Assembly (NCBI GenBank): GCA_000165345.1
Contig: CM000433.1
Span: 576,001 to 640,000 of the forward strand
Direction of reading: 5' to 3'
DNA length: 64,000 bases
Position numbers and translations under genes: made by a program. This document shows positions 4,346-50,100 of this stretch, one piece after another; the stretch's first letter is position 1, and each line of letters opens with the position of its first letter. A model generated the notes under the pieces. That model did no database searches and was not told the DNA's origin. It was given only the letters and a program-made list of their open reading frames with translations.

Positions 4346-7300
4346 ATGCCAATTGAAAAAAAAGAAGTTTTCAAAGCCATATTCAAATCCAAAGAAAGAA
4401 AGCCAATAAAGGAAAAGAAAAAAAAACAAATAAATAGAGATAAATTTGTCAAGAATAATGTAAGGTATATTGCTCCAAATAATGAAAAGGTCAAATTAAA
4501 GATTGAAAAAATGGAGAAGGATTTAAAGAGGGCAAAAAACAAAACAAAACTGATGAGATTTTTTGATAATAAAGCAATTTCAAGATCAAGTCCATTAGAT
4601 AGCCGGCTTGGAACTTACTATGAATTTGAAAATGAAGTAAAAATGAGTATTCTTACGACAGAAGGAACTGAAGTTAGTAGCATTACTTTAAATTTAGAAA
4701 TCACAGCTGAAAATATTAAGCATGAAAAGATACCAGGACTTTACCACTTTATGATTCAAATACTTTTTTCTGAGAAATTTCTTGAAATTGAGTATAATTG
4801 GAATCCACTTGAACCATCATCTTTTAGAGAATATGTTAAAGATATAGGAGGAAAAATTAATATCCAATATTTACCTTCTTGTATTATGATAAGTGTTGGA
4901 TGTCCTTCAAAACACTATATTAAGATGTTGGAACATTTCTTTAATACAATTTATTTGAAAAATAAAGGAAAACCAAGAAAATTAATTTTAAGGAAAAGTT
5001 CGATTGAGCAGGCAATACAAAATATGAATTTGAATTATGTTGAATATATCCAAGATGAATCTTATTTACGTTTTGAAATTCTGAGAGAATTTATTAAGAA
5101 TAATGCCAAATCCTTTCAAAGAACAACAAACCATAAAACTATTGATATACTTAAATTGTGGTCAATTGGTTCAGAATCCACAGTATTATCTTTAATTAAA
5201 GAAGGGAATTTGGAGGTAGAAATAATGCAAGCTTATAATCGAATTATCAGCAATAAACCAGTAATTGTTGCTTTCCATTCAAACATTTCCAATGAAAAAC
5301 TTTTTAAAATATTGAATGATTTTAATATTCCAATTTTGCAAGAAAATGAGAAAATTAAAGATAACACCAATAAAACCATAGGAGATAATAAATCCCTCTT
5401 TAAGCAATCAAAATCTAAGAATAATAAGAACCAAAATAATAATTATTCTGAGCTACCTCCTGTTGCAGTAGCAGATTTGAAACCTTCAATAATAGTAAAT
5501 TCTCCAATTCATGACTCCATAAATAGTAATGGAGAGATTGAAATTCAATGGATTATTCCTGCTTTCTATTCATCTCTTTCGTCATCAAATTCAAAACCAC
5601 TAAAAGTTATTTCTTATTTATTAGAATCTGGAAGTCTTGTGAATTTTTTGAATAAAAGAAAACTTATTAAATCAGTTAGTAGTGGAGAAGTATACTTTGC
5701 AGCTCACTCATCACAAAAGCTTGGATTTACTATATATTCTGTTATTATTAAACTTTCAGAAAAGTTTGAATCTGAAATTGACCCCAAATCACCATTAATT
5801 CAATTTATTGTTCAATCCATATTTGCTTACTTTAATTCATTAATAAAACAAATTGAAGATAGCTTAAATAACTTAGATATTAAATCCACAAAAAAAGATA
5901 TTTTAGAGAATAAAGAAACCAATCGACCATTTCTTGCCATATGTGATATACTCCAAATTGAAAACTACATTTCAAACTCAAATTACCAAATGAATAGTGA
6001 AAGAGAAAACTATATTGATTACTTTGATCGTAATTTTGAAACCACAGAAATTGCCATACAAAACTTAAAATCGCATAATCCAAGCGAAATTCTGGTTGGT
6101 AATAACCGTTTTTATTCAAAAATTAAAGTAATTTTGAAATATGTAAAATTCACTCTTGAAAATGCACTCAAACCTTCAAATTTTATTATTTTTATTACTT
6201 CAAAAGCCTTTTTCAATAATAATAATGAGTATAATTTCAAAAAGCTCAAGCTTCTATTGCCAGACCCACCTACAATTAATTATTTTGAGCTCAAATTTGA
6301 GCCGAACTTCCTCAATTTACTGAAAGATCCTGAAAACTTGAAGAAATATGTCATCAAAATGGATCCATTAAGACAAGTAATACTTAAGAACGAAATAAAA
6401 GATGAATATGACTTCCTGATTTCTCCGCATCATCTTTTGAAGAATTCAGAATTAACTTTTTTAGATGGAGAATTTGAATGGAGCTCTTTTTCAAACCAAA
6501 TTGAAGATGATAATCCAATACAAGGCACAACTCCTTATATTTCAGAACCGAAAATCATATCACAAGATGAGAATAATAAATTCTTAATTTACTACTCTCA
6601 GATCAATTATCCAGATAAATCCAGTGAAATTCTTCAAAGCTCTTTATCTTCTGCTATTATTAGATGGTATGATAGTATTGATTACTCCAAGCTATTATTA
6701 AATAAAGGAAAACAAGGAAATCTAACAAAAAATTCGATACTTGCTTCCTTTATTTCAAGAATTATCTTTGCTATATGGATAACAACGACCTTATCTCTGA
6801 ACTTTAATTCATATAGAAAAATTGGTGCAACCATTAACTTCCAGCCTTGCCATCATTTTGGCACAGCTTTATCGACAAATTGTGTACAATTACAAGTAAC
6901 ATCTCCATCGCCCATGTTTCCAGAATACTTGAAAGAGGTTCTTAAATCTATTCGAACTGTCTCTATGCTGAATATATCGAAAGAACTCTCTGAAAGGGTT
7001 AAAGTGGATGCAATTAAGGAAATTAATCAATCAATATTAGCGAATAGTGCAACCAATTATTGTACTGATAAGATCAAGCAATTGTTTCTTCCTGAGATAT
7101 TTACGCATGAAGAAGTGCTTTCTGAGATAAAAGAGTTAGAAAGTGATGAAATAACTATTCTTTTGGACAAAAAACTTGATATTAAAAATCCATATATCAA
7201 TGTAATTGGATTAATTACTCATATTGATGAACCAAATGTTAGTTTTGATATTGTAAAAGAGTCCCTTATTTCAAATACATGCTTTAATGACTTTAAATAC

Positions 7301-17271: not shown

Positions 17272-18279
17272 TTGAAAGAAATGAATTTGATAATAGGAAA
17301 GGGAAGAAAGCTTTCTTTGCATATTATGGTTTTGGCTTTAATCTTGGTAATTCAGTTAACTCAGTGTGTAAAATGCCTAGACATAACTAGATTAAACGCT
17401 CTTTTGCCAGGAGAGCGATATAATTTGTATACTTCGTTATCGAAAAAAAGAGCTTCATTCTTGGAATTATATTTAATTGAAGAGGAGAAGAATGATGAGG
17501 AAGGAGAACCAAAGGTTAAAGTAGAAACTGATTGTATGTTGAGCGTTTTACAATACAAATTGGTAGATTTATTGATAGGAGATCGTGAACTTAATCAGAA
17601 TTTTGATACAATTACAGCAAAAAAGTGTTTGAGAAAAAGTTTAAGTCAGTTGCAGAGCTTTTATGTACGATTTTTTGATTTAAAACTAATTTACAAACCA
17701 AACTGTTTTGAGAGAGCTTGTTTTAAGAAACCAGAGAAGGTTTTCTTTAAAAATTTGGAGAATCTTGCTCTATCTATGTATTTTTTTTTCACTGTAAATA
17801 ATTTAATAAAAGAAAAAGGTGGTTTTTCAAGAGAATTGGCTCTTCCACAGGAATTGGAACATAAAAATGAAGCAATTTCTGTTTTGAATAATGTCAATCA
17901 ACTTCATTCATATAAAGAAGGCTTAAAAGTTTGCATGAAATTTAATATGTTGGACATTATGTTATATCCAAGACTAAACAATAAGACTCTATTATCAGAA
18001 TTTAAGATTTTCTCTTCAATAGTACGTATTTTGACAGCTAATGTTGAAAAACATGTTCGTTTGTACAAATATAACAAAAATAATTTTGAAATAAATGGGA
18101 AAAAAAATTATAGCAAGAAGTTGATTTCAGATATTAAGAACATTAGGTCTTCAATGAAACTGCTTTCCTATGTAATTCTCACTAAATACTTTATCATTGC
18201 AGACATTTTTAATTTGGAAATATATGAACAGATTTACAATTCTATCATCAATACTAATACCACTTATAATGCATATTAA
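17272..18279 (+). CDS. hypothetical secreted protein (335 aa)
   Basis: The ORF has an N-terminal signal peptide, LSLHIMVLALILVIQLTQCVKC. An aataccggcatg motif at 17099-17114 lies upstream. Confidence 0.6.
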   Translation: MKEMNLIIGKGRKLSLHIMVLALILVIQLTQCVKCLDITRLNALLPGERYNLYTSLSKKRASFLELYLIEEEKNDEEGEPKVKVETDCMLSVLQYKLVDLLIGDRELNQNFDTITAKKCLRKSLSQLQSFYVRFFDLKLIYKPNCFERACFKKPEKVFFKNLENLALSMYFFFTVNNLIKEKGGFSRELALPQELEHKNEAISVLNNVNQLHSYKEGLKVCMKFNMLDIMLYPRLNNKTLLSEFKIFSSIVRILTANVEKHVRLYKYNKNNFEINGKKNYSKKLISDIKNIRSSMKLLSYVILTKYFIIADIFNLEIYEQIYNSIINTNTTYNAY

Positions 18280-18330
18280 AATCTTTTTATTACGTTTACA
18301 TATTCATGTGTTTAAATTTAATACTTTCAG

Positions 18331-18415
18331 AATTCCGGTAGTGAAATTCAGGAAATGGCGGGAAAAACATGCACAGTTATTTAACATAAATATATACTAT
18401 GCATGCATATGCGCA
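18331..18415. promoter_or_regulatory. orphan promoter-motif cluster (CCGGTAG, GGCGGGAAAAA, TGCATGCAT, GCGCAG) between convergent genes
   Basis: The cluster reads aattccggtagtg ... aaatggcgggaaaaacatgcac ... tatgcatgcatatgcgcag. It lies in the 3'-3' interval between the 17272(+) and 18601(-) genes. Confidence 0.4.
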
Positions 18416-18600
18416 GTTTATACTGGCTAAATGAATGATTCAAGGTTAATAATTAGTGAAGGTATGAAATATTTTCTTAGGAAAGTTTTGAAAGGCTTTC
18501 ATTACAAATAAAATATTGCTAAGGTTGGGGTGCCTCTAGCTTTCTTTTTGTTTAACTATAATTTCTAGTTTCTTCATTTTTCTTTTACTTCTTCTTTTTT

Positions 18601-19323
18601 TTATTCTTGTCTCTTTATTACCTTTTTAGTTAAGTAACAAAGAAGCAGAAGGTGCTTGACACTTTCGTGCATTGTAAGGAGGAGTAATTTTCCTGTATTA
18701 ATACATTCTAGAGCTTCAGAATGAGAGCAATGCGATGTATTTGCGATTATTCCATCTCTAATATTTACAATTTCTCTTCTTAAATCTTGGTCTTCAATAG
18801 ACCAATCCCAAGATCTTGCTAAAAGCATTTGAACTGTAATATCTTGAATATTAGCTAAATCAATTAATGAATAGTAATAGTATGCTCCTTGGTTTGCTAA
18901 AAGAAACTTATTTAATTGTTCATTCTCCAAATTTTTAACATAAACCTTTGGATAATTCAAAGCCACGATTTTTCTCTTAAATTCAGTTAAAAAAAGAAGT
19001 ATTGCAACTTTTAAAGTTTCTGTTGCCTCAAATATACTTAAATCTTTTCCTGATTCATTGTAGAAATCTTTCTGTTTCTCATCTGAAAGATCATCTTTAA
19101 GTTGTCTCAAGGTTTCTTCACTATAACATCTTTCTAGAACTTGACTATTCATTGATTCCAATATTATTTCTTCTTCATCTTTTATGTTATTGTTAATAGA
19201 TAGAGAATGAGCTTCTTCAAGGTGGAATTTTGCGTCTTTTTTTTTCACTACAACCACATCAAATTCACATAGACGACATGCTAGATAGTTTTGGATATTT
19301 TCAGTTAACTCTTTCTTCACCAT
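18601..19323 (-). CDS. hypothetical protein with an N-terminal U1/matrin-like C2H2 zinc finger (240 aa)
   Basis: The ORF is on the minus strand. It contains C-x2-C-x13-H-x4-H (CRLCEFDVVVVKKKDAKFHLEEAH). A TC-rich tract lies immediately 5' of its ATG. Confidence 0.6.
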   Translation of the reverse strand: MVKKELTENIQNYLACRLCEFDVVVVKKKDAKFHLEEAHSLSINNNIKDEEEIILESMNSQVLERCYSEETLRQLKDDLSDEKQKDFYNESGKDLSIFEATETLKVAILLFLTEFKRKIVALNYPKVYVKNLENEQLNKFLLANQGAYYYYSLIDLANIQDITVQMLLARSWDWSIEDQDLRREIVNIRDGIIANTSHCSHSEALECINTGKLLLLTMHESVKHLLLLCYLTKKVIKRQE

Positions 19324-19324
19324 T

Positions 19325-19612
19325 TCTTTCTTTCTTCCCTTTTTCTATCTTTCTGTTTCTGTTTCTGCTTCTGTTTCTCTTTCTGTTTCTCTTTCTCTTT
19401 TATTCTTTCTTTTTCTCTTTTCTTTCTCTATTCTGTTTCTCTTTCTGTTTCTCTTTCTCTTTCTATTTCTGTTTCTCTTTCTCTTTTATTCTTTCTTTTT
19501 CTCTTTTCTTTCTCTTTTCTGTTTCTCTTCTTCTTTCTCTTTCCCTTTCTCTTTCCCTTCCTCTTTATCTTCCTCTTTGTCTTCCTCTTCTTATTCTTAT
19601 ATACTCCACCTT
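19325..19612. repeat. about 290 bp polypyrimidine (CT)/GAGA-type low-complexity tract with an internal 47-bp exact duplication (19383-19429 and 19469-19515)
   Basis: ctgtttctctttctcttttattctttctttttctcttttctttctct occurs twice, 86 bp apart, inside a continuous T/C run. The tract abuts the start codon of the minus-strand gene. The FLFLFL... ORF at 19230-19616 is a translation artefact. Confidence 0.85.
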
Positions 19613-19830
19613 ATAACCTTTACAATTGTATTATATTGGCAAACACTGACTTTACCAATCACACAATTCTGTCCTTTCTATAAAGCCAACCAGATATTAA
19701 CACAACCAAAGTCTTTCTCAAACCAAAATACCTGTGTGCCAAATCCTCTAATCCTTAAAATCTCCAATAATTTATTTCAATTTTATCTTACAATTTTACA
19801 TCATCATCCCTACCTTATTTTATATTTGCC

Positions 19831-20150
19831 ATTTTTGGCGGGAAATGCAAATTTTTGAATTTTATTTATTACATGTACTAAAGGCGGAAAAAATTAAAAT
19901 AAAAAATAAATAATTCCTACTTGCTTTAATTCTTTCATATTCACACGTGCCACCAAATAAAACTTCTGAAATTAAAACTTAACTCAATCTACTTCATATC
20001 CACATCTCCACACCCCAAATATTCCCTGATCACTTCTTCTCTCATTCCTTCACTAATTTTCATCTCACTTTTTTAAGCCCAATGTCAATTTTACAAAATT
20101 AGTCTCGGCGCCAAAATTTTACCAGTATCTAAATCATGTATTGGCGCCAC
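19831..20150. promoter_or_regulatory. bidirectional promoter region with three E2F-like boxes (tttttggcgggaaatg; ctcggcgccaaaatttt; attggcgccac)
   Basis: It lies between the divergent genes 18601-19323(-) and 20312-26155(+). Confidence 0.5.
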
Positions 20151-20311
20151 TATCAATAAAAAGAATGTATGAATAAATATTAACTTACAAGGTTAATAAA
20201 CGTTATGCCAAAATAAAGAACAAGAGGAAAAAAGTTCATATCAAACCCAAATAGCAAGCTGTAAAAAATAAGTATTTACTTCATTCAGCTTGTGAAGCTT
20301 CCTGCTTTTAC

Positions 20312-23300
20312 TTGCCGCAAGAAGAATACTTTAAAATGAATCTATCTCAATCTCGCTGTCCTTTTTTCCTAAAGGCAATTATTGCCTTTGGGTTCATTCT
20401 ACAGCTCTCATTTTGCCAGCTCGCTTCTTTAAACTATAGACCTGAAAGGTTGGAGCAACCTATAATTATTAGAAAAGCGCTTAGTAAAGAAATATGTCAT
20501 TTAAAAGAACTTGACGAAATGTCATATTACTGTGAACCTTTGGAAAATACTACCAATGCAGCTTATTTACAAATTGATTGTGAACTTATCTCTAAAAAAG
20601 ATAGTCAGTTTCTCATTCTTGGAGATTGTGATCAGTCCACCAATCTAAATGGCGATCTAGCTTCTTTAAATAACTGCAATAAATATCTTTGTGATATGGA
20701 AAGCAATCCTTTAAACCTTCTAATTGTTAAAGTCTCTGGAAAAACTGAATATTTTCATGCTATTGAACATTTTAAAAGAAATTTCAGATTTAAAGAATCT
20801 ACTCGAAGTATGAAGTTATCTCCTATTCCAGTTCATGTTTTATATAAAAAGTTTCAACTCTTTCCTGATTTTACCAACAAATCTACTCCATGGATCTCAC
20901 CATTCTATGGTAAATATCTTGCCTACTATATTGGATCTGAAGAACATATTCCAACCTTAGATTGGGTTATACAGAAATTTGATAATACTGTTTTTAAAAA
21001 TTTCTTAGAATTGAAAGATAAATATGAAATTCAAGATAAAGAAAATGATATTATTTCTACTTCTGAAACTGTTTACAGTATATCTTGGCTTATATCAACT
21101 ATTATTGAAACTTATTGGACTAGAGGTATTGATCAACAAACTATACAACAAAATCAATCATTTCATACTGAAACATCATCTTTTGATACTGGATTAACAT
21201 ACAGAACTTATTGTTCTTTAGATTTCTCATCTTTTATCTTTAATATGAAACAATATATTGATTTTGCTGCTAGGACTAATAATAGTCCATCTTATTTAAC
21301 TCATGAAATTAAAGATATTAGTAATGAAAATATTAAAGATATATTCTTATACTCAAGAATTGATTTGGATTCATTCTATCTTAACTATTCTCCAAATGAA
21401 ATCAGTTCTGATCATTCCAACTTATCTAATGATGAGTTATTCAATAAACCTTTTCCTTGTAATTCCAAGTATAAAAGTATTCAAAAGCTTAAAAAAACTG
21501 CTTTTGATGATTATTCCAGTAATAATGTCAAAAAATCTTTAGATTCTGATCTTTATAAGCTCAGTAAAACTGTTAATGAAGATATTCTTGTACTTGTTAA
21601 TATTATTTATGAACTTATTTCAAATTATATTATTGGAATTTATAAAAAGAATCCAATTCTTGTTGAATCTAGCGAAAGATTACAAAGATATTATAAGATA
21701 TACCAAAAATTATTCTCTAGAATTACTGAAATCAAGTTAGAAGTTGATAAAGTTTGTGGTAGAAAAGCTTTTAAAATCTACTCAAAGAATAATGATGGGA
21801 AGAAAACTATTATTAGCAGTAGTAGTAATAATAGTAATAATAATAATAATAATAATAACTCAACTAATGACAAAAATTCTACAAAGTCAAATAAAAATAA
21901 GCATTCAGACTTGGATGAAGAAAATATTTGCTCTTTAAGATATAGTATGGATGTTATTAAAAGATTGGAATCCATCTTCTTTTCAATTCATGAAAATTAC
22001 AGATATGTTGAACAATTGAGAAAAAATCAATTAAACTCTCCTGAATATCTTTTAAGATCAACTTATTGTTTCTCAAAGGCTCTTTTTGAAAGTAACTATA
22101 AAGATATACCTAATGAAACAATTATTAAAACAGTTTTAATTAATTCAATAATTTACAAACTTAAAAAAAGTACAAGTAAATCTATAAAATCTGAATGTCT
22201 TAAAGATCTTAGTAGTGGTGATCTTTCTTGGTTAGTAGATATTGAATCAAATTCACAAATTTGTGAAAGTTATTCAAATTGTATCTTTAATAAGGAATCC
22301 ATTAATCAAAGTGTAGAAATTTTTACTAAACTTAAAGAAATTGATCAAGAAGGAGGATTCCATGAAAAATTTGCATTAATTAAAGAAATGTGTATATATT
22401 CTGACAAGATTCTAGGACTAAGCTTAGCTAGAAATAAAGACACAGAGTCCAATAATATTGATTCTGATTTGACAAATTGTCAAGGATTTCGTCTTTTACA
22501 GCTTACACTTAGAACTAGTCAACTTCAACAAGAAGTTGTTGGATTCAAATTCAGAATTACTCTTGTGGACAAAATTGGTAATTCTTACTTTATACCAGAC
22601 TCCTCAACTGTTAACTATTTATTAATTAATGACTTTTGTATGGATCCTGAAATTACTCCATTAATTCAATGTAATTTTGATTGGGTAGCTTTTCAAAGCT
22701 TAGAAGAATTGAAAAAGTCAAGTAAAAAAGAGAATTATAAAAGGATTACAAACTCTATTGTATTACCAGATGGATATACTATATATACTCCTTTATACTT
22801 TAAAGAAACTACAGATATTGACTTTATTTCACTTTCAAATGGAGTATTGTTTGGCCGTATTTTAAGTTCTGAGACTAATCTTAATCCTAAGCTTAGACTT
22901 ACTTACTTTAATGGACTTCCATATCCATATCATATGAATAATGAGGATCTTAAAAGGAAGATTTGTGAAAAATCTCCAAACAAATTTACTTATAATCCAG
23001 AATATTCAAATCCTCAGAAGATATTGGTTTTGAAGATTAGTTATGAATCTAGTCCAATTTCTATAATAGTTGATGATGAATACTTTGAAAATAAGACATT
23101 GATAAGGAATTCTTTGATTTTCAAGGATAAGTTTTCTGTGATTGAAACACCAGGACTTTCAATACCTTTAACTCCTTGTATAATTCAGATTGAAAGTACT
23201 TTGAGATCAAAATCTCCTTGTAACTCAATACTTTTCCCTTATTTAATGATTCAAGAGTTTGTTAATCCTTTAGGAATTGAGAATAATAATGGGATTATTA

Positions 23301-26155
23301 ATGGTAATATTGTTAATAGTGGTACTATTAGTAGTAATAATAACAATAACAGTGATAAGAAGAATAAAAGTTCTTCTACTCCTATTAATACAATGGATGA
23401 TATCATTTATCCAACAAATCTGGAAGGTGTATTAGAAAAGATACTTGAAATTGAGCCTTTAGCTTTAAACTTTATTGTTTCTGGTCGTGGTTATAAATTT
23501 CTAAAGATGATTTTAAAGTCGAATTATTATCTTGGATATCACTTTTTAACAACTTTAGTAACTTTTTGGACAGGTGGTTCCAAATTCCGTCAACATTGTG
23601 ATATGCATCCAGGAAACATTCTTACAAGATTTCCCTCTAGTTGGAAAAAGTATAAATGGGAGAAATATTTAAAAAGTGTTTTAGATCACATAGATCAGAG
23701 ATACTTTTCTATTATTGATGTTGATTTTTCTTATGAAAGTGAAATGAAGATTACAAATTTGGAAGAAGATATTGAGAGACTTCCTGATAAGGACCCATGT
23801 AATCATCCTTCAGTAATAGAAAATAATAGTCAAGTATCTAGGAATGATTATGAGAGAATTATGTGTTTCTTTTGTGATTCTCATATGTCTCTTGAAACAT
23901 TTACTGAAGTAATTTCAAATTCTTATCCTTCCAAGACAGTATATTATGATCTTTCAACACATTATGAAGATATTATGAGAATTCACAATTATACAATGAA
24001 TTATTGTGAAAAAGCAAAGAAAATGATAAATGAATTAAAAGAGAGAGGGGAGGATGATCTTGCAACAGGGTTTAAGATGATCCAAAGCTTAAGAAAAGTG
24101 ATATGGAATTCAATTCTTGGACTTGATGGATTTGATACAGTTTCGGTTTCAGGTAATGAACTTGAAAACAATGATTTATTTAGTAGGTTTTTATTTTCAG
24201 GTTCAGGACCAAGTTTAGAATCTTGGTTATCATTACAAAAATCATCAGAATTAAAGAATAAGAAGGAATTAATAACAACAAGGAATTTAAGAAGAGGAGA
24301 TTCAATGATGGATAATGAGAACTCGTCTTTATATAATAATGATGATTTAAAGGAATCAGTTTTAGTAGAAAAGGGTCTTTCTTTACCGGTATTCCCAGAG
24401 AGAATAATGCCAGGAATGACTTCATCAATTCCAGAGCAGAGTTTAAGTTTTTACTGTATTGCAATATCAACAAGAAAGCTCTTAAACTCTCCATCATTAA
24501 AATTTACAGATCTTGTAAACTTTTTATTACAAAGATCATCATCTGAGGGATATATAAGAAAGATTCATTTTGGATCAAGTTTTGAAGAATTTGAATCAAC
24601 AAGAAGTAAATTAGAATCTGTGGAGCATTCAAAATTAGCATGTATGGAGAATTATGAAAATAAAAGGATTGTAATGGAAATGATACCATTAATATATTCA
24701 AAAGCTGATATGGTTTGTCCGAAAGATATTTGTACAAGTGTTAAACATTATGATATTTTTGAATCAATAGTATTAGTTTATAGATACCGTTTGAGTCATT
24801 TAATTTCAACAGCTTATCATTTGGGAGATACTTATAGTAATTTTGAAGACCAAATGTTAAGTATTAAAGTTTGGATGGTAGAGAGAAAGAATAAAATAGG
24901 TAAGAATGGTTTAGATTCAAGCATAGCAGAGAAGAAGTTATTGAAATTAAGTGAAGAACAGATAAATTCTATATTAGAGCTATATCACTTTTGTATAAGA
25001 GATAGGTTTTACAGTTCTTTATCTTATGGTCAATTAAAATGTAAAACAATACCAGAATTTGAAAAGTATGGAGAAGATTCGAATGGATTATTAATTTTGG
25101 AATTATCATCAATTTCTGATAGATCTTCAAGTAATATATTATTTCCATGGATTTACAATAGTGATTTTTCAATATTTGAATCAGAATTTTCATTTAAAGA
25201 TGTGAATGGTATTTCTGTGATTGGTATTGTAAGACCTTTTGAACAAGGAGAGGGAATAGAGAATAATAATATAAAGGAAAGAAAAGTGTTTATACATAAA
25301 GGAGGTAAATGCATTTACAATTATAATTCAAGAATAGATGAATATAAGGCTCCTCCAAGTATTACAAACAAGATTTCAGAAGGACATGAACATTTATACA
25401 GAAATAGTTTTATTGGATATGATAAGATGGAAATAAATAGTTTGACAGTTTTTACATTAGATGAAGGTAAAAGAATAAGTTTTTATTCTTGGGTTAAAGG
25501 AATAATGAATGCAAGTACAGGTTTTTTTCAAGAGAAAGATTTAGGATTGTCAGGAATGGGTTTTTCTTCAATAAAGAAGAATTATCAGATTGAGTTAATA
25601 ATTCTAGTTGGTTTTGTTGTGAAGACATTTAAGTCAATTTGGATTCCAAATCCAGAATGTAAGCATTATAGTAAGTTTAAGACTGTTTGTTTCCCAATGT
25701 TTTGTGGTCTGTCAAGCAAGAATATTATTTTAAATGTTGGTGATAACAGAAGAATTAGAGGGGTGAAGTTTTTATTTGGGCAAGATATTAAAGTAATAAA
25801 TGCATATAATGATGTTACAAGTTTAAATTCCGAAGGCTCAGGATTTCAGTTGAATAAAGAGAAATCAAAATCTGAGCTTGAGGAGTTAGTTAGTCTAAGC
25901 CATATTTTGCCACATTATTGTTTTGGCAATAATGATCAAGTTAATGATATGATAGCAGTTGCATCAACTTTAGAGTATTTAACTACAGTAATTGCTACAG
26001 ACGGTGCTTTGGACCCTTTAAAGTTATTTTCTTCAAATGTTGGCGATGTCTATTATAGGTACTTTAATATGACATTGGAGGAAATTTTAGGTCAAGTAAA
26101 TAGATTTTGCGATATATTGCAAGCTTATTCAGGGTCAAAGAGCCGTGTATGTTAG
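20312..26155 (+). CDS. large hypothetical secreted protein (1947 aa), Cys- and Asn-rich
   Basis: Uninterrupted 5.8 kb ORF. The signal peptide starts at the second Met, MNLSQSRCPFFLKAIIAFGFILQLSFCQ. It has poly-N/S insertions and I recognise no domain. Confidence 0.8.
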   Translation: MPQEEYFKMNLSQSRCPFFLKAIIAFGFILQLSFCQLASLNYRPERLEQPIIIRKALSKEICHLKELDEMSYYCEPLENTTNAAYLQIDCELISKKDSQFLILGDCDQSTNLNGDLASLNNCNKYLCDMESNPLNLLIVKVSGKTEYFHAIEHFKRNFRFKESTRSMKLSPIPVHVLYKKFQLFPDFTNKSTPWISPFYGKYLAYYIGSEEHIPTLDWVIQKFDNTVFKNFLELKDKYEIQDKENDIISTSETVYSISWLISTIIETYWTRGIDQQTIQQNQSFHTETSSFDTGLTYRTYCSLDFSSFIFNMKQYIDFAARTNNSPSYLTHEIKDISNENIKDIFLYSRIDLDSFYLNYSPNEISSDHSNLSNDELFNKPFPCNSKYKSIQKLKKTAFDDYSSNNVKKSLDSDLYKLSKTVNEDILVLVNIIYELISNYIIGIYKKNPILVESSERLQRYYKIYQKLFSRITEIKLEVDKVCGRKAFKIYSKNNDGKKTIISSSSNNSNNNNNNNNSTNDKNSTKSNKNKHSDLDEENICSLRYSMDVIKRLESIFFSIHENYRYVEQLRKNQLNSPEYLLRSTYCFSKALFESNYKDIPNETIIKTVLINSIIYKLKKSTSKSIKSECLKDLSSGDLSWLVDIESNSQICESYSNCIFNKESINQSVEIFTKLKEIDQEGGFHEKFALIKEMCIYSDKILGLSLARNKDTESNNIDSDLTNCQGFRLLQLTLRTSQLQQEVVGFKFRITLVDKIGNSYFIPDSSTVNYLLINDFCMDPEITPLIQCNFDWVAFQSLEELKKSSKKENYKRITNSIVLPDGYTIYTPLYFKETTDIDFISLSNGVLFGRILSSETNLNPKLRLTYFNGLPYPYHMNNEDLKRKICEKSPNKFTYNPEYSNPQKILVLKISYESSPISIIVDDEYFENKTLIRNSLIFKDKFSVIETPGLSIPLTPCIIQIESTLRSKSPCNSILFPYLMIQEFVNPLGIENNNGIINGNIVNSGTISSNNNNNSDKKNKSSSTPINTMDDIIYPTNLEGVLEKILEIEPLALNFIVSGRGYKFLKMILKSNYYLGYHFLTTLVTFWTGGSKFRQHCDMHPGNILTRFPSSWKKYKWEKYLKSVLDHIDQRYFSIIDVDFSYESEMKITNLEEDIERLPDKDPCNHPSVIENNSQVSRNDYERIMCFFCDSHMSLETFTEVISNSYPSKTVYYDLSTHYEDIMRIHNYTMNYCEKAKKMINELKERGEDDLATGFKMIQSLRKVIWNSILGLDGFDTVSVSGNELENNDLFSRFLFSGSGPSLESWLSLQKSSELKNKKELITTRNLRRGDSMMDNENSSLYNNDDLKESVLVEKGLSLPVFPERIMPGMTSSIPEQSLSFYCIAISTRKLLNSPSLKFTDLVNFLLQRSSSEGYIRKIHFGSSFEEFESTRSKLESVEHSKLACMENYENKRIVMEMIPLIYSKADMVCPKDICTSVKHYDIFESIVLVYRYRLSHLISTAYHLGDTYSNFEDQMLSIKVWMVERKNKIGKNGLDSSIAEKKLLKLSEEQINSILELYHFCIRDRFYSSLSYGQLKCKTIPEFEKYGEDSNGLLILELSSISDRSSSNILFPWIYNSDFSIFESEFSFKDVNGISVIGIVRPFEQGEGIENNNIKERKVFIHKGGKCIYNYNSRIDEYKAPPSITNKISEGHEHLYRNSFIGYDKMEINSLTVFTLDEGKRISFYSWVKGIMNASTGFFQEKDLGLSGMGFSSIKKNYQIELIILVGFVVKTFKSIWIPNPECKHYSKFKTVCFPMFCGLSSKNIILNVGDNRRIRGVKFLFGQDIKVINAYNDVTSLNSEGSGFQLNKEKSKSELEELVSLSHILPHYCFGNNDQVNDMIAVASTLEYLTTVIATDGALDPLKLFSSNVGDVYYRYFNMTLEEILGQVNRFCDILQAYSGSKSRVC

Positions 26156-26587
26156 TTTGTTGACGATTATGTTTTCTGAATAGAAATAGCCAATTATTTA
26201 ATTTTGCTTTGGTTTTAAATTGGGCGGGCATATTTTGGATTTGTTAATTTTCTTTAAATTTTTTAGAAATATATTGAATTTTGGAGGAGTTGGGAGGGAT
26301 AGATTTTGAATGTTTTGGTTGTTTGTAACGATATGGGATTAACTTTTATGTTTTTCTCTTTCTCTTAAGGTTTTAGGATTTTTAGAATACTAGAATTTAT
26401 GGAGTTTGAACTGTTGCAAATATTATTACCTGGCACTACAAGAAGAAAGTAGAGGGGGAAAACAAAAATGAATCTTCATGATATATGTCATTTTTCTAAT
26501 TTCTAGATTGAGAAAATTTACCGTTACTTTTTTAAATCCATTTTAAGTAATAATTTACATGGTATTTTCAATCTTGTAAAAATAGAC

Positions 26588-26602
26588 AGTTTGGCGCCAC
26601 AT
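26588..26602. promoter_or_regulatory. E2F-like box (agtttggcgccacat), with a second box at 26221 (tgggcgggca), upstream of the 26745 gene
   Basis: Motif reading. A (TA)n microsatellite at 26594-26620 is adjacent. Confidence 0.45.
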
Positions 26603-26744
26603 ATATATATATATATATATATATATTTTTTTTCATTAAGTATAATGCAAACTTGACAATATTAAGAAAGAGGTTAATACATGTATATATTATAAATATA
26701 TAAAAATATTTGCATATATATTTTCTTGAAAAAGAAAAGAAAGA

Positions 26745-28672
26745 ATGAAGTTAAACAAAAGTTCAATAATGACTTTTGCAATCATTATAGTTGTTCTGGT
26801 AAGTTAATATGGGATTAGAAAAGAAATCTTTTTTTTTTTTTTTTTTTAACAATTTGTTCATCAATGCATGCAAATTTAATTGCATGTAATTTCAAACAAA
26901 ATGTTCACAATGCCGGTATTGCATTAAATATATGGTGAAGATTAGATTTGCATGCACTGAAGAATATGTTTCAAAAAAAAAAAAAAAATATGAAAAATAT
27001 ATGACGTTAATTCCTTTCATTTCTTCTTTCTTTGTTTAAATAGGGAATAATAAGCAGAATAGTTGACTCAACAGTTTCAGAAAATGAATTAAGAGTAAGA
27101 AATATTGGAATTGAAAAGCGAAATAATTTGGAAAGTACTTTCATAAGTGAAAATGATGAAAACGCAAAGAAATATAATGAAGAATTAGAGCTGGAATTGG
27201 AGGCGTTTAAAGTGGCATCAGAACTCAGTACATCATTTATTAAAAAGATTCCTCAACAATTTAAAGATTTTTACAGAAAATCAGATGGAACAGCAGAAAG
27301 TATGTATAAGAATTGTATTTATGGATTCTTATTGTTAACTAAAAATGGAAAAGTTTCTCCAATTCTATATGTTAGAACATTAGTTTATAAGCTTGGAAAT
27401 AGGTATTATTTTGATTTAGGAGAAATTCAAGATGAGAAAGAAAGAGAAAATGCTAAACTTGTTAAACTACAAGTTGGACAAGCAATACACTTATTTTGTA
27501 TGAAAGGATCAAGCCTATTTTATTCCAGAGATGAAACAAAACCTTTAGATAGTAAGATTAAAAAAGAGTTGGCTAGATTAGAAGAACAGGAGCAGGAACA
27601 AGAACAAGAACAAGAACTAGGGCAAGAACATCAAGAAAGGTTAGATGATAATATTAAAGAAAGACCAGAAATGGTGGAAATAATGTTATATTTGACAGAA
27701 TTGCTGGATAGTGAGATTTTAAGTGTTGAGATTGATAAAGCAATGATGAATGGAAGAAGAAAAGAAATAAAGGATATTTGGAAGATTGGAAAAGAAAGAA
27801 GATTAGATCAAGAAAAAATTAACGAGTATAAGAATATGGTCAAATTGATTCGAATTCCCCTTCCAGAATCACGACTTAGAGATAGATATGGCCAAATACA
27901 TCATCCTGATTCAGAAAATAAACTTGGAGTCCCAACAAGAATCCAAAAAGAAAGTGATAAAATAAAATCAAAATTGAATCAAATTAAAAGAGATGAGAAC
28001 ATTCTTATGGGAGTAGGTAATGAGAGATTTGTTGATTATGAGAGAAGAAAGTATTTAGAAGCAGCTTTAAAGAGAAATCAAAAACTTAGTTTTGAGAAAA
28101 ATAAACAAATAATTTCAGATAGGAGAAATGAGGATAAACAAGACGAAGAATCCAGATTAAAATGCGAATGTGAAGAAGAAGAATGTGAATGTAGGATTGT
28201 TGGTCTTTATGGAGAGGTTTTAGGTAAGCCTGTATCAATAAAACTTGAAGAGGAACTTTTTAATGATCATCAAATTTTTGGAAACAAAAATAAGAACCGA
28301 AAAAATGAAATCAAGCATTTTAAAGGATTAATAACTGGAACAAGAGAAGAAAACAGAAAGTATAAAGGTAATAATGAATATCAAGATAATTCTACCGGCT
28401 CAAATTTGAGAAGAAAGTTACATGTTCCAAATAGTTACATTGAGATTCCTCTTAGAGGTTTATCTAAACTTCAATTATTAACACTTGAGCAACTTTCTGG
28501 GATTGATATTAATACAAGAAGCTCAACACAATTTTTACCAAGAATTAAGAAAATTAATCATGAAAAAAACATTAAAGTATCAGAATCAGTACCTATTAAT
28601 GAAGATGATAAAGGTTCTTCTATAAAGAAACCAAAAAGTATTTTACATAATAGAAACAGAAACTATATTTAA
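26745..28672 (+). CDS. hypothetical secreted, charged/coiled-coil protein; predicted two-exon gene join(26745..26798,27044..28672)
   Basis: Exon 1 (MKLNKSSIMTFAIIIVVL) is a signal-peptide start that ends exactly at a GTAAGT donor. The AAATAG acceptor at 27041-43 puts exon 2 (GIISRIVDST...) in frame with the long ORF 27128-28672, which itself lacks an ATG. That ORF contains an EQEQEQEQEQE tract and is K/E/R-rich. If the intron call is wrong, the CDS is 27128-28672 only. Confidence 0.5.
26799..27043 (+). other. predicted 245-nt intron containing TGCATGCA / TGCCGGTATTGCAT motifs
   Basis: It has GTAAGT at the 5' end and TTTAAATAG at the 3' end, and it contains T18 and A16 homopolymers. It also contains aatgcatgcaaatttaattgcatgtaat, aatgccggtattgcatt and ttgcatgcac. 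Confidence 0.45.
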
Positions 28673-29231
28673 CTAACTTAAATAAAGAAGCAAAACCTCA
28701 TCAATTTTGACTTGAATAACGATATTTATAAGTTTCTAGAAGATCAGCATAATTTATGTTAAATCTTTCAATAAGTTCTAATATTAATATTAATTTTATA
28801 TTTCAAAGCTAAAATCAACCTTGGATGATTTTTTTTTTTTTCAAAATCTCTATTTAGAATCAAGGCAGATAATTATTTACACTAAAATGAATCATTTTCA
28901 CAAACAATCATTTTGAAATAAATAAAGTAAGGATAATTAATTGATCACTTTTTTTTAAAAAAATATATATATTAATATTTAATTCATTTCCTTCATTTTA
29001 TCATAAATGATCATTTAAATTGAATTAACAAATAAAATAATCAAGAAAGATCATTTTCTTTATCGATTTATCTCGAGATTTCTTTTTATTCAATTGACAA
29101 ATATTAAATATTGATCAAATTTATTCAAATTATTGTTTTAACACGTTTAAATGAATTTTATTACGTGTCTATCATTATTTATTTATTATCTAAGGAACTG
29201 CATGTAATTTATTATTTTTTCTGCTTGTGCA

Positions 29232-29245
29232 GTTGGCGGGAAATC
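29232..29245. promoter_or_regulatory. E2F-like box (gttggcgggaaatc) 155 bp upstream of the 29401 gene
   Basis: Motif reading. Confidence 0.45.
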
Positions 29246-29400
29246 ACAATGTCTAAAAATGAAAATTGGGTATTCAGTTTTAAAAGAAAACAAATATATA
29301 ATATATTGCATATATATATTAATTGAAAGCGAATGAAAAACTAAAAGTATTCGATGAAAATTTTGTCAATTAATCTAATTCACGAAGATAATTAAAAATA

Positions 29401-30939
29401 ATGAGTCAGAGTACACTTTTTCATAAGAGTGTATTGATTTTCTTTATTGTAACTATTTTCTATGGGTACCAAATAAAGTTATTAGAGTGTGCAACAGCAA
29501 ATTCCGATGTTTCGGAACAGAATAACCCAAATAGCATGCCAAGTGCAATAAATACTAGGCATGCAACGAGTCTTTATGAAAACTTGGTACCAAAACATCC
29601 TCAAACTTCAACATCTTTACTATATGGAAGAATGAAAGTACGTAATTGGCTTTATGTAACAAGGCGAAATAAGGAGGTGGGGGCATTAAGATATGGACTT
29701 AATAATGATGATATGCATGTAACAATTCAGATGTATGTTAACAACTTGAAGACTCACATTCCAGTTCAAAAGACTTATTTACATGAAAGAAGAGGTAAAG
29801 CAAGAAAATATAAAAGAAAATATATGTATTGGATTTGGAGACGTTGGAGATATTTACTTTCAGCAAAGGAGAGAATGCCAATATTAGTTGAAGATAAAGA
29901 TTTGAAGCAAATGCCAATAGATCCATTAGAAAGAGTTTATAGCTATGCGGTAAATATTATAGAGGTTCCAAACGCATTTTATTTAGAACAGGTACATTGT
30001 ATGTATACTGGTATTAAACCATTTATTAATGGTATTTTACCAAGTTATTCTTTACAAGATTTAATTGGAGCTTCTCTTTATTCAATAGGACCGGATGGAA
30101 TATTTAAGGATTATTTCTGTATACAAGCAATAAATTTATGGAGTGATGATCAAATAGTACCAAATGCTAATGCAATTTGTGAAAGAGCAAAGAAATGTTT
30201 AGATAATCGTGAAATAAATGAAAGAAAGACAAAACAACTATTTAATGAGTATGTGAATAAAATTTCCGTGATATATTCAAATAAAAGGTTTATTGGAGCA
30301 GATTCTGGATATACTTTTGCATCAAATGCATTCTTAGAAATGGTACAAATATTTCATGAATTAGAAGCACATAAACGTCCTGACTATATTGAGAAGCTTT
30401 TTGTAATTGTTAGATCAATAAGATTTATGATTTATGCAAATGAATTATTACTAAGATCAGGAGTTAAAAATAAAGCAGTTTTCAAAGCCCCAAATGTTTC
30501 AGATGTTATTCAATATTCAGTATTTAGAGTTGATCCAGTTTCTATGATAAGGTTTTGTGTTGCTCATTTTATAACAACAAGGTTCAAGTTTAGAAAGAAT
30601 ATGGGTATTGCTGTTATTGAGGAAGCATGCGCTCATAGTTTAAGTTTTGGATTTATTGATGATACAGGTCAATTACCCCGTGGTGTAACAAAATCTAAAG
30701 CTAGAGAAATAATTTATCAACATTTTTCAACTTTAGAAGAAGAGGAAGAACATGGTGACAATTTTGTTTTGATACATTCTCAGGATCAAAACATCTCTAT
30801 TGATGAGAAAGGTAATATTAGTAGAAATACAAAGAAAAAGGCAGAATTAGAAGATATTCAAGAAGCTGACGAAGAAAGTAATGAAGAGCTTGAAGATGAG
30901 GAGAATTGGAATACTTTTGTTAATCAATATATTGAGTAG
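29401..30939 (+). CDS. hypothetical secreted protein (512 aa) with an acidic C-terminus
   Basis: The ORF has a signal peptide, VLIFFIVTIFYGYQIKLLECATA. The E/D-rich tail is EEEEEHGD...EDEENW. Confidence 0.75.
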   Translation: MSQSTLFHKSVLIFFIVTIFYGYQIKLLECATANSDVSEQNNPNSMPSAINTRHATSLYENLVPKHPQTSTSLLYGRMKVRNWLYVTRRNKEVGALRYGLNNDDMHVTIQMYVNNLKTHIPVQKTYLHERRGKARKYKRKYMYWIWRRWRYLLSAKERMPILVEDKDLKQMPIDPLERVYSYAVNIIEVPNAFYLEQVHCMYTGIKPFINGILPSYSLQDLIGASLYSIGPDGIFKDYFCIQAINLWSDDQIVPNANAICERAKKCLDNREINERKTKQLFNEYVNKISVIYSNKRFIGADSGYTFASNAFLEMVQIFHELEAHKRPDYIEKLFVIVRSIRFMIYANELLLRSGVKNKAVFKAPNVSDVIQYSVFRVDPVSMIRFCVAHFITTRFKFRKNMGIAVIEEACAHSLSFGFIDDTGQLPRGVTKSKAREIIYQHFSTLEEEEEHGDNFVLIHSQDQNISIDEKGNISRNTKKKAELEDIQEADEESNEELEDEENWNTFVNQYIE

Positions 30940-31747
30940 TTTAAACTGACCTTTTGATTTTGTCAGCATATTAGAAATGTATATTTTTTTTTTATTATTT
31001 TTGTATTTCTAATAAGTCTACGAACTCCAAACTAATTCTTGTAATTAAATGAGTGTTAATTAGATAATTAAATAAATGTTCTGGAAATAAATTTAATATT
31101 AATGCAATATTTATTCATCTTCAAATAATTTCTTTTCCACATGAAAAAAAGTGTATGCATGCAAATACCGGTATTGAAGTTGATAATATTAGTAATTTTT
31201 TTCCACATAAAATTACTAAATACAGTTAATTACATGCAATCACCACTTGCAATAATCAGAAAGCAAAACATTTTTTCTCTTTAATTTATATAAGGAATTA
31301 ATAACAAAAGGGTTTTCGCAAGGAATATATTATAAAAAAATGTTAGATTTTAATTATATAATTATAAGAGGATTCCCATTGGTTCTGCTTGCTCAAAGTT
31401 TTTATTCAAATTAAAGTAAGATAAAATTACGAGTTTTCAATATATGCGGACTAATGGATGAAAGAGTAAATTATACAAGCTTTTATCAGTAAATTTCAGT
31501 TAAGCCGTAATTAGATAATTCAAAGTGGGTTATAATACAAAATCAATACTAGCGAATAATCCGCAAATTCAATTGCTATTAAATTGATAAACAGCTTATG
31601 TTCAACTAATAATAGCAAGACATAACAAAGAGTGGTTAATAATATTTTATGAATAATAAAGAAATTCTATCGACAAAATATATTAATAATACAATTGTGA
31701 GCTTAATAAAATATACATTTTTTAATAAATCAGATAATGTATGATAA

Positions 31748-31860
31748 AATAAATATAAATAAAGTATAAATATATATATATAAATATTTATGTATAAATT
31801 TATAGTTATATTAATATTAATAAATATATATATTTATACTTTATTTATATATAAATATAC
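31748..31860. repeat. AT-rich imperfect inverted repeat (about 35-bp arms, about 30-bp spacer) in a 1.3 kb gene-free interval
   Basis: aaataaagtataaatatatatat at 31760-31785 is the reverse complement of atatatatttatactttattt at 31822-31845. The flanking (ataaat)n repeats extend the arms. Confidence 0.6.
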
Positions 31861-32229
31861 AAATACATGCATTAGGCGCCTTGGGCAGAATATTTAAATT
31901 GTCAAACTTGGGAGTTTTATAGTAAAAACAAGACAAGGCCGTCAAAATATATTGGAAAACCTTCTGAAAGTGAATCCTGAATATTTCAGAATAATCAACT
32001 TCAGAGTCGAATAATATTGCTGTCTTTGGGTATTCTATTCATTCTTCAATGATGCCATAATTACATATTGTAAATATTTGAAGTAAAGCAAATCAATTTA
32101 CTAACTGAAAAAAAAAGGAGCAAACAATCATTCAAGATAATAAGAAAAGAAAGAGTAATTAAAACAAATTCTTTCTCACATAAAAGAAACCATTTATTTA
32201 TTTTGACTTTGAAGCTGCAAGTTGTTTAA

Positions 32230-47110: not shown

Positions 47111-50100
47111 ATGTTTAGATATTGTAGTAAAATCACCGAAAGAGTGTTATACTCTACTATAAAGAATGTTATGAATAAGATATTCACAAATTTTGAACAA
47201 GAGCAACTTTCCATCTCACTTTTAGGTGGAAGCTTGGAAATAAGGGATTTAAATATTAGAAAAGAACTTTTTGATGATTTATCTTTCCCAATCAGTTTAA
47301 GTGATGGAATTGTTGGAAAAGTTAATATTGATGTTATCTGGAGAAAAATATTTACCCAAGAGTTTGTGAAAATCACCTTGGATGATGTATATGTTATTTT
47401 TAATACTACTGATATGAAAAATTGGAATGTTGAAATGTTTGAAAAAAACTGGAAAAGGGTTAAAGCTAATCTATTAAAACAAGATGAATTTATTACTTTC
47501 TTAAAAAGTGCTATGGCTTCCAATTTTCTCAAACAAATTGGACACTTTTTTATATCAAAGATTCAGTTTGAAATTAAAAACATCAATTTTAGAATTGAAA
47601 ATTTGTTATTCCACTATATGAAGAGATTTGTTATTGGACTAAGTATTGATAAAATTTCCAGTCGAAATTGTAATGAATATTGGATTCCAGTAGATAAATC
47701 TGGAGGAGCCATTTTAGGCCGTAATACAGACAAAATTAATGGATCATCAACTTCAAATATAGCTTTTGATAATAATGATATAAGAAATTCAAAAGCATCA
47801 GGTAACTCTAATAACCATATATCATCACAGTCTATACCCAGAGAATTCTATCTAGATGAACAAGATGAAACTAGTATTGGATCTATTGTAGACAAATATA
47901 TGAAATTTATGGAGCCTAAATTAAAAATTAATAAAGGTTTTACTGGAGATTCTGAAGAAAATCTAGACAATATTGATGATATGAAAGAACAGGAGGATAT
48001 TTTAAAAAGTATTCTAGCAAAATCTAAATCCAAGATTAATGGAAATAAATCTATAGAAACTCATAATTTTTGGTCAAAGCTTAAAAAAAAGACTCCTCTT
48101 AGTTGGGTATGGAATAACCAAATTTACGATCAAAAATCTGAATCTTCAAAAAATCCTAATATTGAAGAGAAACAAATTGAGATAGACAATACAGAACTCA
48201 ATAGTGGGATATGGCATAACAATGATCTAATTTTTCCCTACCCTAATGGAATGGGAGTCAATAGAGAAGTCATTGATAACTTTATCACATCCAAGGAAAA
48301 CAGAGAAATAGAAAAATACAATAAGGAAAAGTTTGTCCAACCTGATATTCTGGAAAAAAATGAAATCTTCCTCAAATCTTTCTTAATAGAGAACTTTTCT
48401 GTATATATTGATGAGATCTCACTTTATAACAAAACTATTAACTCTCCTTGGACCAATTTAAATAAATCAGAATCACAAATCTCTGATAGATTAAAATTCT
48501 TAAAAATTACTTCTGAAAAAGAATACGATACCCATGATTTTATTATTTATCCACATAAAATTGAATTAAGAGTAAGATTGGTACCTTGCATTATAAGATA
48601 TGATGAGAATATATATGCATCAGCTTTGAATGATAGGTTTTATATTCTATCTCAGGATGAAGATAACCAGATTATTCCATTAATATCATCTTATTTTATT
48701 TTTGATAATTTAAGTATTGATATCACAGAAAAACAATTAAAGTTATTGTTAGATTTTTTGGACTATACAGTATTTTTATATGGAGATTTTTCAGCAGGTT
48801 CATGTCCAAAGGATTTTCAGAACTTTCCAGATGAACAATCATGTATTAGGTATAGAATTTCATGGTTTGAGTTTCTTATAGGAAAAAGAGACAGAAGTTA
48901 CTCAGAAATTTGCAATATTGAAGACAGTTATAATGCTTATTCTTTAATAAAGCTCAGAAATGATGTTTATAAGTGTCTTAATTATTCAATATATCATTCA
49001 GTAAAGTCAATACTTAGCTTTGAACTAGATAAAAGTGATCAAGGAAATGTTTTAACTTTTCCTCTATTTGTAATCAAAGATCATGAAGAATGTAATTCAA
49101 GAGATAATCCTTTTGGAGGATTTCCAAACAAAAATAAGCCAGTATTGGTTAATGAATCTGATAAAATCAGTAATAATCTGGCTCAGTATATTATTTCTAA
49201 ATTAGTTATAGGACAGAATGATTATTACTCTGTAAGTTTGAATATGAATGATGATTCAACTGTTGGAGGAGGAAAAAAGGCAAATATTAATAATGAGATA
49301 AAGGAAACAGAAATCTATTTAAGTAAGGAGGAAATTCAATTAATTAAAGAGAATGATTTACTTGAAAGGATCAAAACAAAAACAAGCAGTTTGTTATCAC
49401 AGAATGAGTTACCTTTTGAGGTGGTAACTTTTGATCTGAATTCATACTTGAAAACTGAAAAGGATAATAATAACAAGAAATCTCATCATACTTCACCATT
49501 TATGCTAATACTGAATGCTCAAAACTTAACAATTAACTATTCGATCAATCTGAATGATCATAATCCATATTCTAAAAATAAGAAGAGCTTAAGATTTAAT
49601 TGTCTAGACTTGTATATACAATATAAGCTATTTACTGAATCAAAAAAGTTAGAGACGACAATAGCAGCAGAAAATTGTTATATGGTTGTTCACGATAACA
49701 AGGAAATAGGGAAAAATTTAATAAACAATTCAAATTGTTTACTTAGGATTGGACCAAATATCCAAAACTCAAAAGATTCTGACAAAGAAACTTTTAAACA
49801 ATTAACAAATCATCCAATATTACATAGATCAAGTATATATACCGGTACTACAATATGCAATAAAAGGCCTTATATGATGTTTACTGGAAATCAACGAAAT
49901 ATGAAGATTTACGAACCTTGTGATAAAATTGGAGGATTCTGGATAACTATTAGACTAAATAAAAATCCTTTCAGAACTACCCCAAAAGTGAATGTTTATG
50001 GAAAAACTTATGGTGAAATTTCCATTGTTGGATCATATGATGTATTTGAAAGGTTCTTAGATCCAATAGTTAATCATTTAAGCCCAAAACAAAGAAATAA

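Follow-up and report, generated by a model that had tools for sequence, protein, structure and literature searches.

Two gaps between convergent genes on chromosome 5 of Cryptosporidium parvum contain boxes that, by their sequence, are known C. parvum E2F-like and AP2_1 promoter motifs, and the best conserved of those in the first gap lies within a 21-mer that is retained in related species. The most likely explanation for the boxes in both gaps, which we hold with slightly better than even confidence, is that they are promoters of non-coding antisense RNAs. From the identity, enrichment, and conservation of the motifs we infer that the two loci are transcribed as antisense lncRNAs.

Promoter Motifs in Two Convergent Gaps

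The window, that is, the whole 64,000-nt stretch of DNA that was analysed, has a G+C content of approximately 28% and is occupied by intron-poor, tightly packed genes, 17 of 22 of which lie on the plus strand. Positions 8601-29323 match exactly a 20.7-kb stretch of CP044418.1 (C. parvum IOWA-ATCC chromosome 5), so that a coordinate in this record equals the window coordinate plus 597,813; the flanking proteins are identical to C. parvum Iowa II / IOWA-ATCC proteins. The window has four convergent intervals. Boxes of the E2F/AP2_1 type are found in two of these, which are described together with their flanking genes in Table 1, and the two remaining true convergent gaps lack such boxes. Interval 2 is long at 782 bp, versus 258-494 bp for the other convergent gaps of the window. 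The C. canis ortholog of the 240-aa gene that flanks interval 1 is named C2H2-type domain-containing in one source.

Table 1. The two motif-bearing convergent intervals, their flanking genes, and the boxes within them (window coordinates)
Feature	Position	Strand	Remarks
Convergent interval 1	18280..18600 (321 bp)		Between stop codons of 332-aa gene (+) and 240-aa gene (-); CP044418.1:616093-616413
Left flank, interval 1	17281..18279	+	332 aa, uncharacterised; possible sense target of a leftward transcript
Right flank, interval 1	18601..19323	-	240 aa, CPATCC_002291
CCGGTAG	18335-18341	+	Interval 1; listed in the first-pass annotation
Conserved 21-mer AAATGGCGGGAAAAACATGCA	18353..18373	+	E2F-like box GGCGGGAA and adjoining ACATGC (AP2_1-like motif 7)
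E2F-like box GGCGGGAA	18357-18364	+	Interval 1; motif 4 of Oberstaller 2013
AP2_1 box TGCATGCA	18400-18407	palindromic	Interval 1; BGCATGCAH
GCGCAG	18411-18416	+	Interval 1
Convergent interval 2	34789..35570 (782 bp)		Between 852-aa WH2-domain gene (+) and ~299-aa gene (-); CP044418.1:632602-633383
Left flank, interval 2	32230..34788	+	852 aa, WH2 domain
Right flank, interval 2	35571..36470	-	~299 aa, acidic
E2F-like box TTTTGGCGCCAATTTTTT	34811-34828	palindromic	Interval 2; motif 3 DTTGSCGCCH
Two ACATGCATG boxes	35034-35042, 35048-35056		Interval 2; AP2_1-like, motif 7 ACATGY
E2F-like box AATTGGCGGGAAG	35213-35225	+	Interval 2; motif 4

Elsewhere in the window, the span 19324-32229 carries four locus tags (CPATCC_002292-002295) and three protein accessions (QOY41705-41707), so one tag is either unused or assigned to a non-protein feature. 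The ORFs at 47111-54019 and 54135-62108 (2302 and 2657 aa, on the same strand and with no Pfam match) lie 115 bp apart with no E2F box in the spacer, and could represent a dicistron of the published kind or one split gene. The G+C content is 0.41-0.47 in the first 2 kb of the window, the site of a 737-aa ORF with no Pfam match, and 0.19-0.20 in the last 2 kb.

Upstream motifs described from Cryptosporidium (Oberstaller et al. 2013, PMC3734150) include motif 1 (BGCATGCAH), motif 3, motif 4 (TTTGGCGGGAAV), and motif 7 (ACATGY); BGCATGCAH is the AP2_1 motif, bound by the AP2 domain of cgd2_3490. Motif 4 has instances at 18357 and 35217, and the AP2_1-like motif 7 has instances at 18367, 35034, and 35048. 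Exact matches are given by TGCATGCAT at 18400-18408 (AP2_1 motif BGCATGCAH) and by TTTGGCGCCA at 34812-34821 (motif 3, DTTGSCGCCH). Relative to motif 4, ATTGGCGGGAAG at 35214-35225 has one mismatch and AATGGCGGGAAA at 18354-18365 has two, both in the T-run, with an exact core. The AP2_1 content of interval 2 consists of two copies of the weaker family member ACATGY only. Box TTTTGGCGCCAATTTTTT begins 23 nt past the stop codon of the WH2 gene, and 346 nt separate box AATTGGCGGGAAG from the stop codon of the minus-strand ~299-aa gene; for interval 1 and the box at 34811, motif-to-stop distances are 23-93 nt.

All motifs named in the first-pass annotation were found on the plus strand, at the positions given there or one to two bases away. 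Among them, CCGGTAG and GCGCAG match no described motif and are poorly conserved: CCGGTAG is loosely kept in the three closest species only, and is probably not part of the interval 1 element, and GCGCAG is not conserved beyond the closest species.

The boxes are far more frequent than dinucleotide-preserving shuffles of the window would predict, with 7 copies of GGCGGGAA observed versus 0.21 expected, 13 of TGCATGCA versus 0.54, and 12 of TTGGCGCC versus 0.11. Overall they are 25- to 100-fold above chance, and in coding sequence their frequency is reduced approximately 100-fold. Sites of the E2F consensus GCGSSAA number 25, one of them in 48 kb of coding sequence (CDS) and 24 in 16 kb of intergenic DNA, which corresponds to densities per kb of 0.02 in CDS, 0.83 in tandem intergenic regions, 2.83 in divergent regions, and 2.16 in convergent regions. 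This pattern bears out the earlier statement that E2F-like boxes otherwise lie strictly 5' of genes, and all remaining boxes of the window have a gene start within approximately 150-500 bp.

A third apparent 3'-3' case, the pair of GGCGCC boxes at 38275 and 38289, was rejected; the boxes lie upstream of the RPS10 gene (38659-39045, plus strand) and therefore belong to an ordinary promoter. The gap involved (38270-38658) had seemed convergent before the 128-aa RPS10 ORF was recognised. These boxes begin 6 and 20 nt past the stop codon of an ARF-like gene and approximately 370 nt 5' of RPS10, so that the RPS10 promoter overlaps the 3' UTR region of the preceding gene.

Conservation Among Cryptosporidium Species

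The syntenic 20-kb region was compared in C. meleagridis, Cryptosporidium chipmunk genotype I, C. ubiquitum, C. canis, C. felis, and the Cryptosporidium of run SRR31860986; for C. ryanae the comparison covered the first convergent gap only. A contig from run SRR31861040 ends 51 nt past the gene and was of no use for gap comparison. Orthologs encoded on the SRR31860986 and SRR31861040 contigs are 55-69% identical to C. parvum, and these runs may represent Cryptosporidium species beyond the named genomes found. Gene order and both convergent gaps are kept in all six further species, so that across seven Cryptosporidium species each interval is flanked by conserved convergent genes, with no gene called within it.

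Taken whole, both gaps evolve at a roughly neutral rate. Compared with C. ubiquitum, interval 1 has an identity of 0.53 and interval 2 of 0.49, versus 0.66 at four-fold degenerate sites, and the corresponding values for C. canis are 0.35 and 0.30 versus 0.39. Within interval 1, the 21-mer AAATGGCGGGAAAAACATGCA has no mismatch in C. meleagridis, one in C. ubiquitum, two in C. canis, and three in the SRR31860986 species, and in each of these four species none of 2000 shuffles was equally good. In chipmunk genotype I and C. felis, only GCGGGAA, the core of the 21-mer, is preserved. In the six species with a full GGCGGG core, the E2F box is always on the plus strand, 61-93 nt past the left-hand stop. 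Among the 22 motif sites between 17 and 39 kb (approximately 22 kb), the 21-mer site is the third best conserved; the two ranked above it are both canonical promoter boxes. These comparisons point to clear purifying selection on the interval 1 E2F box and argue that it is clearly functional.

The syntenic first gap of C. ryanae, at 558 bp (4745-5302 of its contig) versus 242-417 bp elsewhere, contains no E2F-like box and no GCATGC box. The interval 1 element is therefore confined to the seven compared species from C. parvum to C. felis, and its E2F box dates back to the common ancestor of these species. Its companion, the AP2_1 box TGCATGCA at 18400, is shared with C. meleagridis and chipmunk genotype I; in C. 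canis, GCATGCA is located on the opposite side of the E2F box.

Outside C. parvum, the E2F boxes of interval 2 are found in C. meleagridis only, apart from half a site in chipmunk genotype I. They have 3-7 mismatches in 16 positions outside C. parvum and are no older than the C. parvum/C. meleagridis split. C. meleagridis retains the palindromic box TTTTGGCGCCAATTTTTT, chipmunk genotype I has half of it, and species farther away have lost it; box AATTGGCGGGAAG (35213) is kept in C. meleagridis only. A box reading GGGCGGGAA or GGGGCGGGGG lies at another place in the gap, approximately 60 nt from the stop of the minus-strand gene, in C. felis and C. canis; this looks like site turnover. The position occupied by CATGCATG is older, with GCATGC(ATGC) at the homologous place in five of the six other species. 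In four species TGACACGTAATTATT comes next after this GCATGC box, and the two make up a 28-nt island that none of 2000 shuffles equalled. The interval 2 motif cluster is probably functional.

The 28-nt island GCATGCATGCAGTGACACGTAATTATTT, syntenic with window positions 35030-35075, is found in chipmunk genotype I, C. ubiquitum, C. canis, and the SRR31860986 species. In C. parvum and C. meleagridis the TGACACGTAATTATT half is degraded (TGATACCTTGTTATT). No motif of the published Cryptosporidium surveys cited here matches the half of the island with the ACGT core.

Looking for the boxes in related species, as the first-pass annotation had proposed, supports its reading at the interval 1 21-mer and goes against it at the interval 2 E2F boxes, which are shared with C. 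meleagridis only.

Putative Antisense Promoters and Alternative Roles

If the boxes are antisense promoters, E2F/DP heterodimers would bind GGCGGGAA and TTGGCGCCAA, and an ApiAP2 protein of the AP2_1 class would bind the TGCATGCA-type boxes. The bound boxes would drive non-coding RNA polymerase II transcripts that start in the 3'-3' gap. Such a transcript would extend back across the 3' end of one of the two flanking genes, making it a natural antisense lncRNA; in the longer interval 2, it would be partly intergenic.

Transcription on the plus strand, antisense to the 240-aa and ~299-aa genes, is slightly favoured because the boxes lie just past the stop of the left-hand gene, as do the ARF-RPS10 promoter boxes, and because six of the seven GGCGGGAA copies in the window are on the plus strand, the strand of most of its genes; neither point is significant. 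The favoured sense targets of the candidate plus-strand antisense RNAs are thus those two genes, the 240-aa gene for interval 1 and the ~299-aa gene for interval 2. The GCGGGAA sites in tandem promoters comprise two forward and two reverse copies, and variable orientation and spacing of these promoter boxes have been reported in published work, so that box orientation is no guide to transcript direction.

A published catalogue offers 396 C. parvum lncRNAs identified from stranded RNA-seq (Li et al. 2021, PMC7840661). Fifteen 22-mers over both loci, taken on both strands, are absent from 324 of these 396 sequences, in which a control 22-mer was found. Cp_lnc_208 and Cp_lnc_221 were considered as transcripts of these loci, on the assumption that CPATCC_0022900 of CryptoDB is CPATCC_002290 of GenBank, and were rejected when their sequences proved to be outside the window; CryptoDB and GenBank numbering therefore differ. 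The sense-strand translation of Cp_lnc_221, used as a protein query, gave no match.

The same sites could instead serve as a 3' element, bound by E2F/DP and ApiAP2 factors, that acts on the flanking genes as an enhancer, silencer, or gene-loop anchor and has no transcript of its own. Such a role would suit an interval 1 box that keeps its distance from the left-hand stop in six species, that is conserved as well as the best canonical promoter boxes, and whose locus has no lncRNA among the 324 of 396 catalogue sequences. We nevertheless regard it as unlikely: the other boxes of the window all have a gene start nearby, downstream elements are undescribed in the cited Cryptosporidium literature (PMC7840661, PMC3734150, PMC12246861), and published data associate antisense starts with these motifs where they lie at 3' ends (PMC7840661).

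A second alternative, to which we assign a rather low probability, is that the bound factors mark a boundary, maintaining a nucleosome-free gap or roadblock that terminates and insulates the convergent units and so prevents collision or read-through. It would account for a site placed exactly between two convergent 3' ends and conserved across species in interval 1 with no product evident, and a boundary would be in keeping with a very compact genome in which UTRs overlap (PMC12179316). Half of the four convergent gaps of the window have no such box, however, so the box is no general requirement for convergent gaps, and no such role of E2F appears in the cited Cryptosporidium literature. Nucleosome-free 3' regions serve as antisense start sites in other eukaryotes, and the boundary explanation therefore partly merges with that of antisense promoters. 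If true, it would mean that E2F/DP serves in architecture or termination within a very compact genome.

It is improbable that the boxes are non-functional, arising as chance or recent motif copies in AT-rich spacer DNA, and this is plausible for the interval 2 E2F boxes only. Their mismatches outside C. parvum, the near-neutral rate of both intervals overall, and the lack of conservation of CCGGTAG and GCGCAG are all consistent with such an origin. Against it, fewer than 0.01 copies of GGCGGGAA are expected in 1.1 kb (scaled from the window shuffles) and two are observed; the conservation of the interval 1 21-mer is far above neutral expectation; the GCATGC island of interval 2 is kept in five of six other species; and in both C. 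felis and C. canis this gap has E2F-like boxes at other positions.

The suggestion that the motifs drive small unannotated genes is not supported by comparison between species: no ORF is conserved, and reading frames are not preserved from C. parvum to C. meleagridis. The longest ORFs, of 77 aa (18197-18430) and 71 aa (34794-35009), are those given in the first-pass annotation, and neither is conserved. Stop-free segments in the gaps, searched in all frames, have matches between C. parvum and C. meleagridis only, with changes of frame. The 71-aa ORF is broken in C. meleagridis by a 22-nt deletion, and a 26-aa ORF (18431-18511) has, as read from the alignment, 3 synonymous versus 7 non-synonymous differences and a shifted stop, and is broken in chipmunk genotype I. 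In two C. parvum annotations, protein accessions run consecutively across both gaps (QOY41702-41712 and KAL5368700-710), and the CP044418.1 record has no spare locus tag or protein accession that could belong to a gene in one of the gaps. No Rfam family matched within the window at its gathering score, and at E<=1 the gaps gave one chance miRNA match (17 bits versus a threshold of 90); a tRNA search found none. RNAalifold consensus energies across the four closest species are 0 to -3 kcal/mol per 120 nt, indicating no conserved RNA structure. With no conserved ORF, Rfam match, tRNA, or fold, small protein genes and structured small RNAs are unsupported, and a hidden protein gene or snoRNA-like RNA is very improbable despite the length of interval 2 and the 43 novel intergenic intermediate-size ncRNAs known from C. 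parvum (PMC9465071).

The 22-nt segment missing from C. meleagridis contains a 15-A run of C. parvum (within 34865-34895). A hairpin on the minus strand at 18340-18430 (-21.1 kcal/mol, z = -3.0), in which CATGCA-type boxes (18367-18408) form an inverted repeat, was rejected as an RNA structure: it is probably a by-product of the two palindromic CATGCA boxes, the second of which is lost in C. ubiquitum. A scan for bacterial promoters and terminators gave background counts of promoter-like sites and is irrelevant for a eukaryote.

As promoters of antisense RNAs, the reading that we prefer, the boxes would add two more loci to a class of several hundred, and the current picture of C. parvum gene regulation would be unchanged. 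The E2F site of interval 1 is unusually well conserved and suits a point-mutation test, C. parvum being editable by CRISPR. Such a mutation would probe the regulation of sense genes by antisense RNAs, which is still unknown (PMC12246861). Phylogenetic footprinting across Cryptosporidium can single out functional cis-elements in 3'-3' gaps, which upstream-only surveys skip.

Comparison with Known Antisense Transcripts and Promoters

Of the catalogued C. parvum lncRNAs, 91.7% are antisense, and their coverage of the sense mRNA is concentrated at its 3' end; in the 100 bp upstream of the lncRNAs, E2F/DP1 and ApiAP2_1 rank as the top two motifs, at a spacing from the start that is not fixed (PMC7840661). 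The more recent CpBGF annotation holds 766 lncRNAs (PMC12179316), E2F motifs dominate the ATAC-seq peaks of sporozoites (bioRxiv 10.1101/2025.01.17.633476), of which 984 are known (Xiao et al. 2025), and approximately 10% of C. parvum genes have an antisense transcript of unknown function (PMC12246861). C. parvum is without Dicer and Argonaute, so that any antisense effect would be independent of RNAi (PMC12246861).

The lncRNA or antisense reading put forward in the first-pass annotation fits this known class and restates a published genome-wide result; given the class described by Li et al. (2021; PMC7840661), the idea is a rediscovery. Both loci resemble those lncRNAs in lying at mRNA 3' ends, in having no coding capacity, and in carrying the same E2F and AP2_1 motif families. 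They differ from the catalogued examples (PMC7840661) in being known here from sequence alone and in their absence from the 324 of 396 sequences.

As with the promoter motifs of Oberstaller and colleagues (PMC3734150; PMC4117751), the boxes are confined to non-coding DNA and reach a density like that of divergent promoters; unlike those motifs, they have no protein-coding start on either side. The upstream-region databases used in that work (PMC3734150; PMC4117751) would leave out 3'-3' gaps. Bidirectional promoters in Giardia and 3'-biased antisense transcription in Plasmodium are cited by Li et al. (PMC7840661).

The candidate starts described here resemble the antisense starts of yeast, Giardia, and Plasmodium in lying at gene 3' ends in a gene-dense genome and in overlapping the sense mRNA. 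In yeast, antisense initiation takes place from 3' nucleosome-free regions. Unlike initiation from such generic open chromatin, the start in Cryptosporidium is apparently tied to specific, conserved transcription-factor sites.
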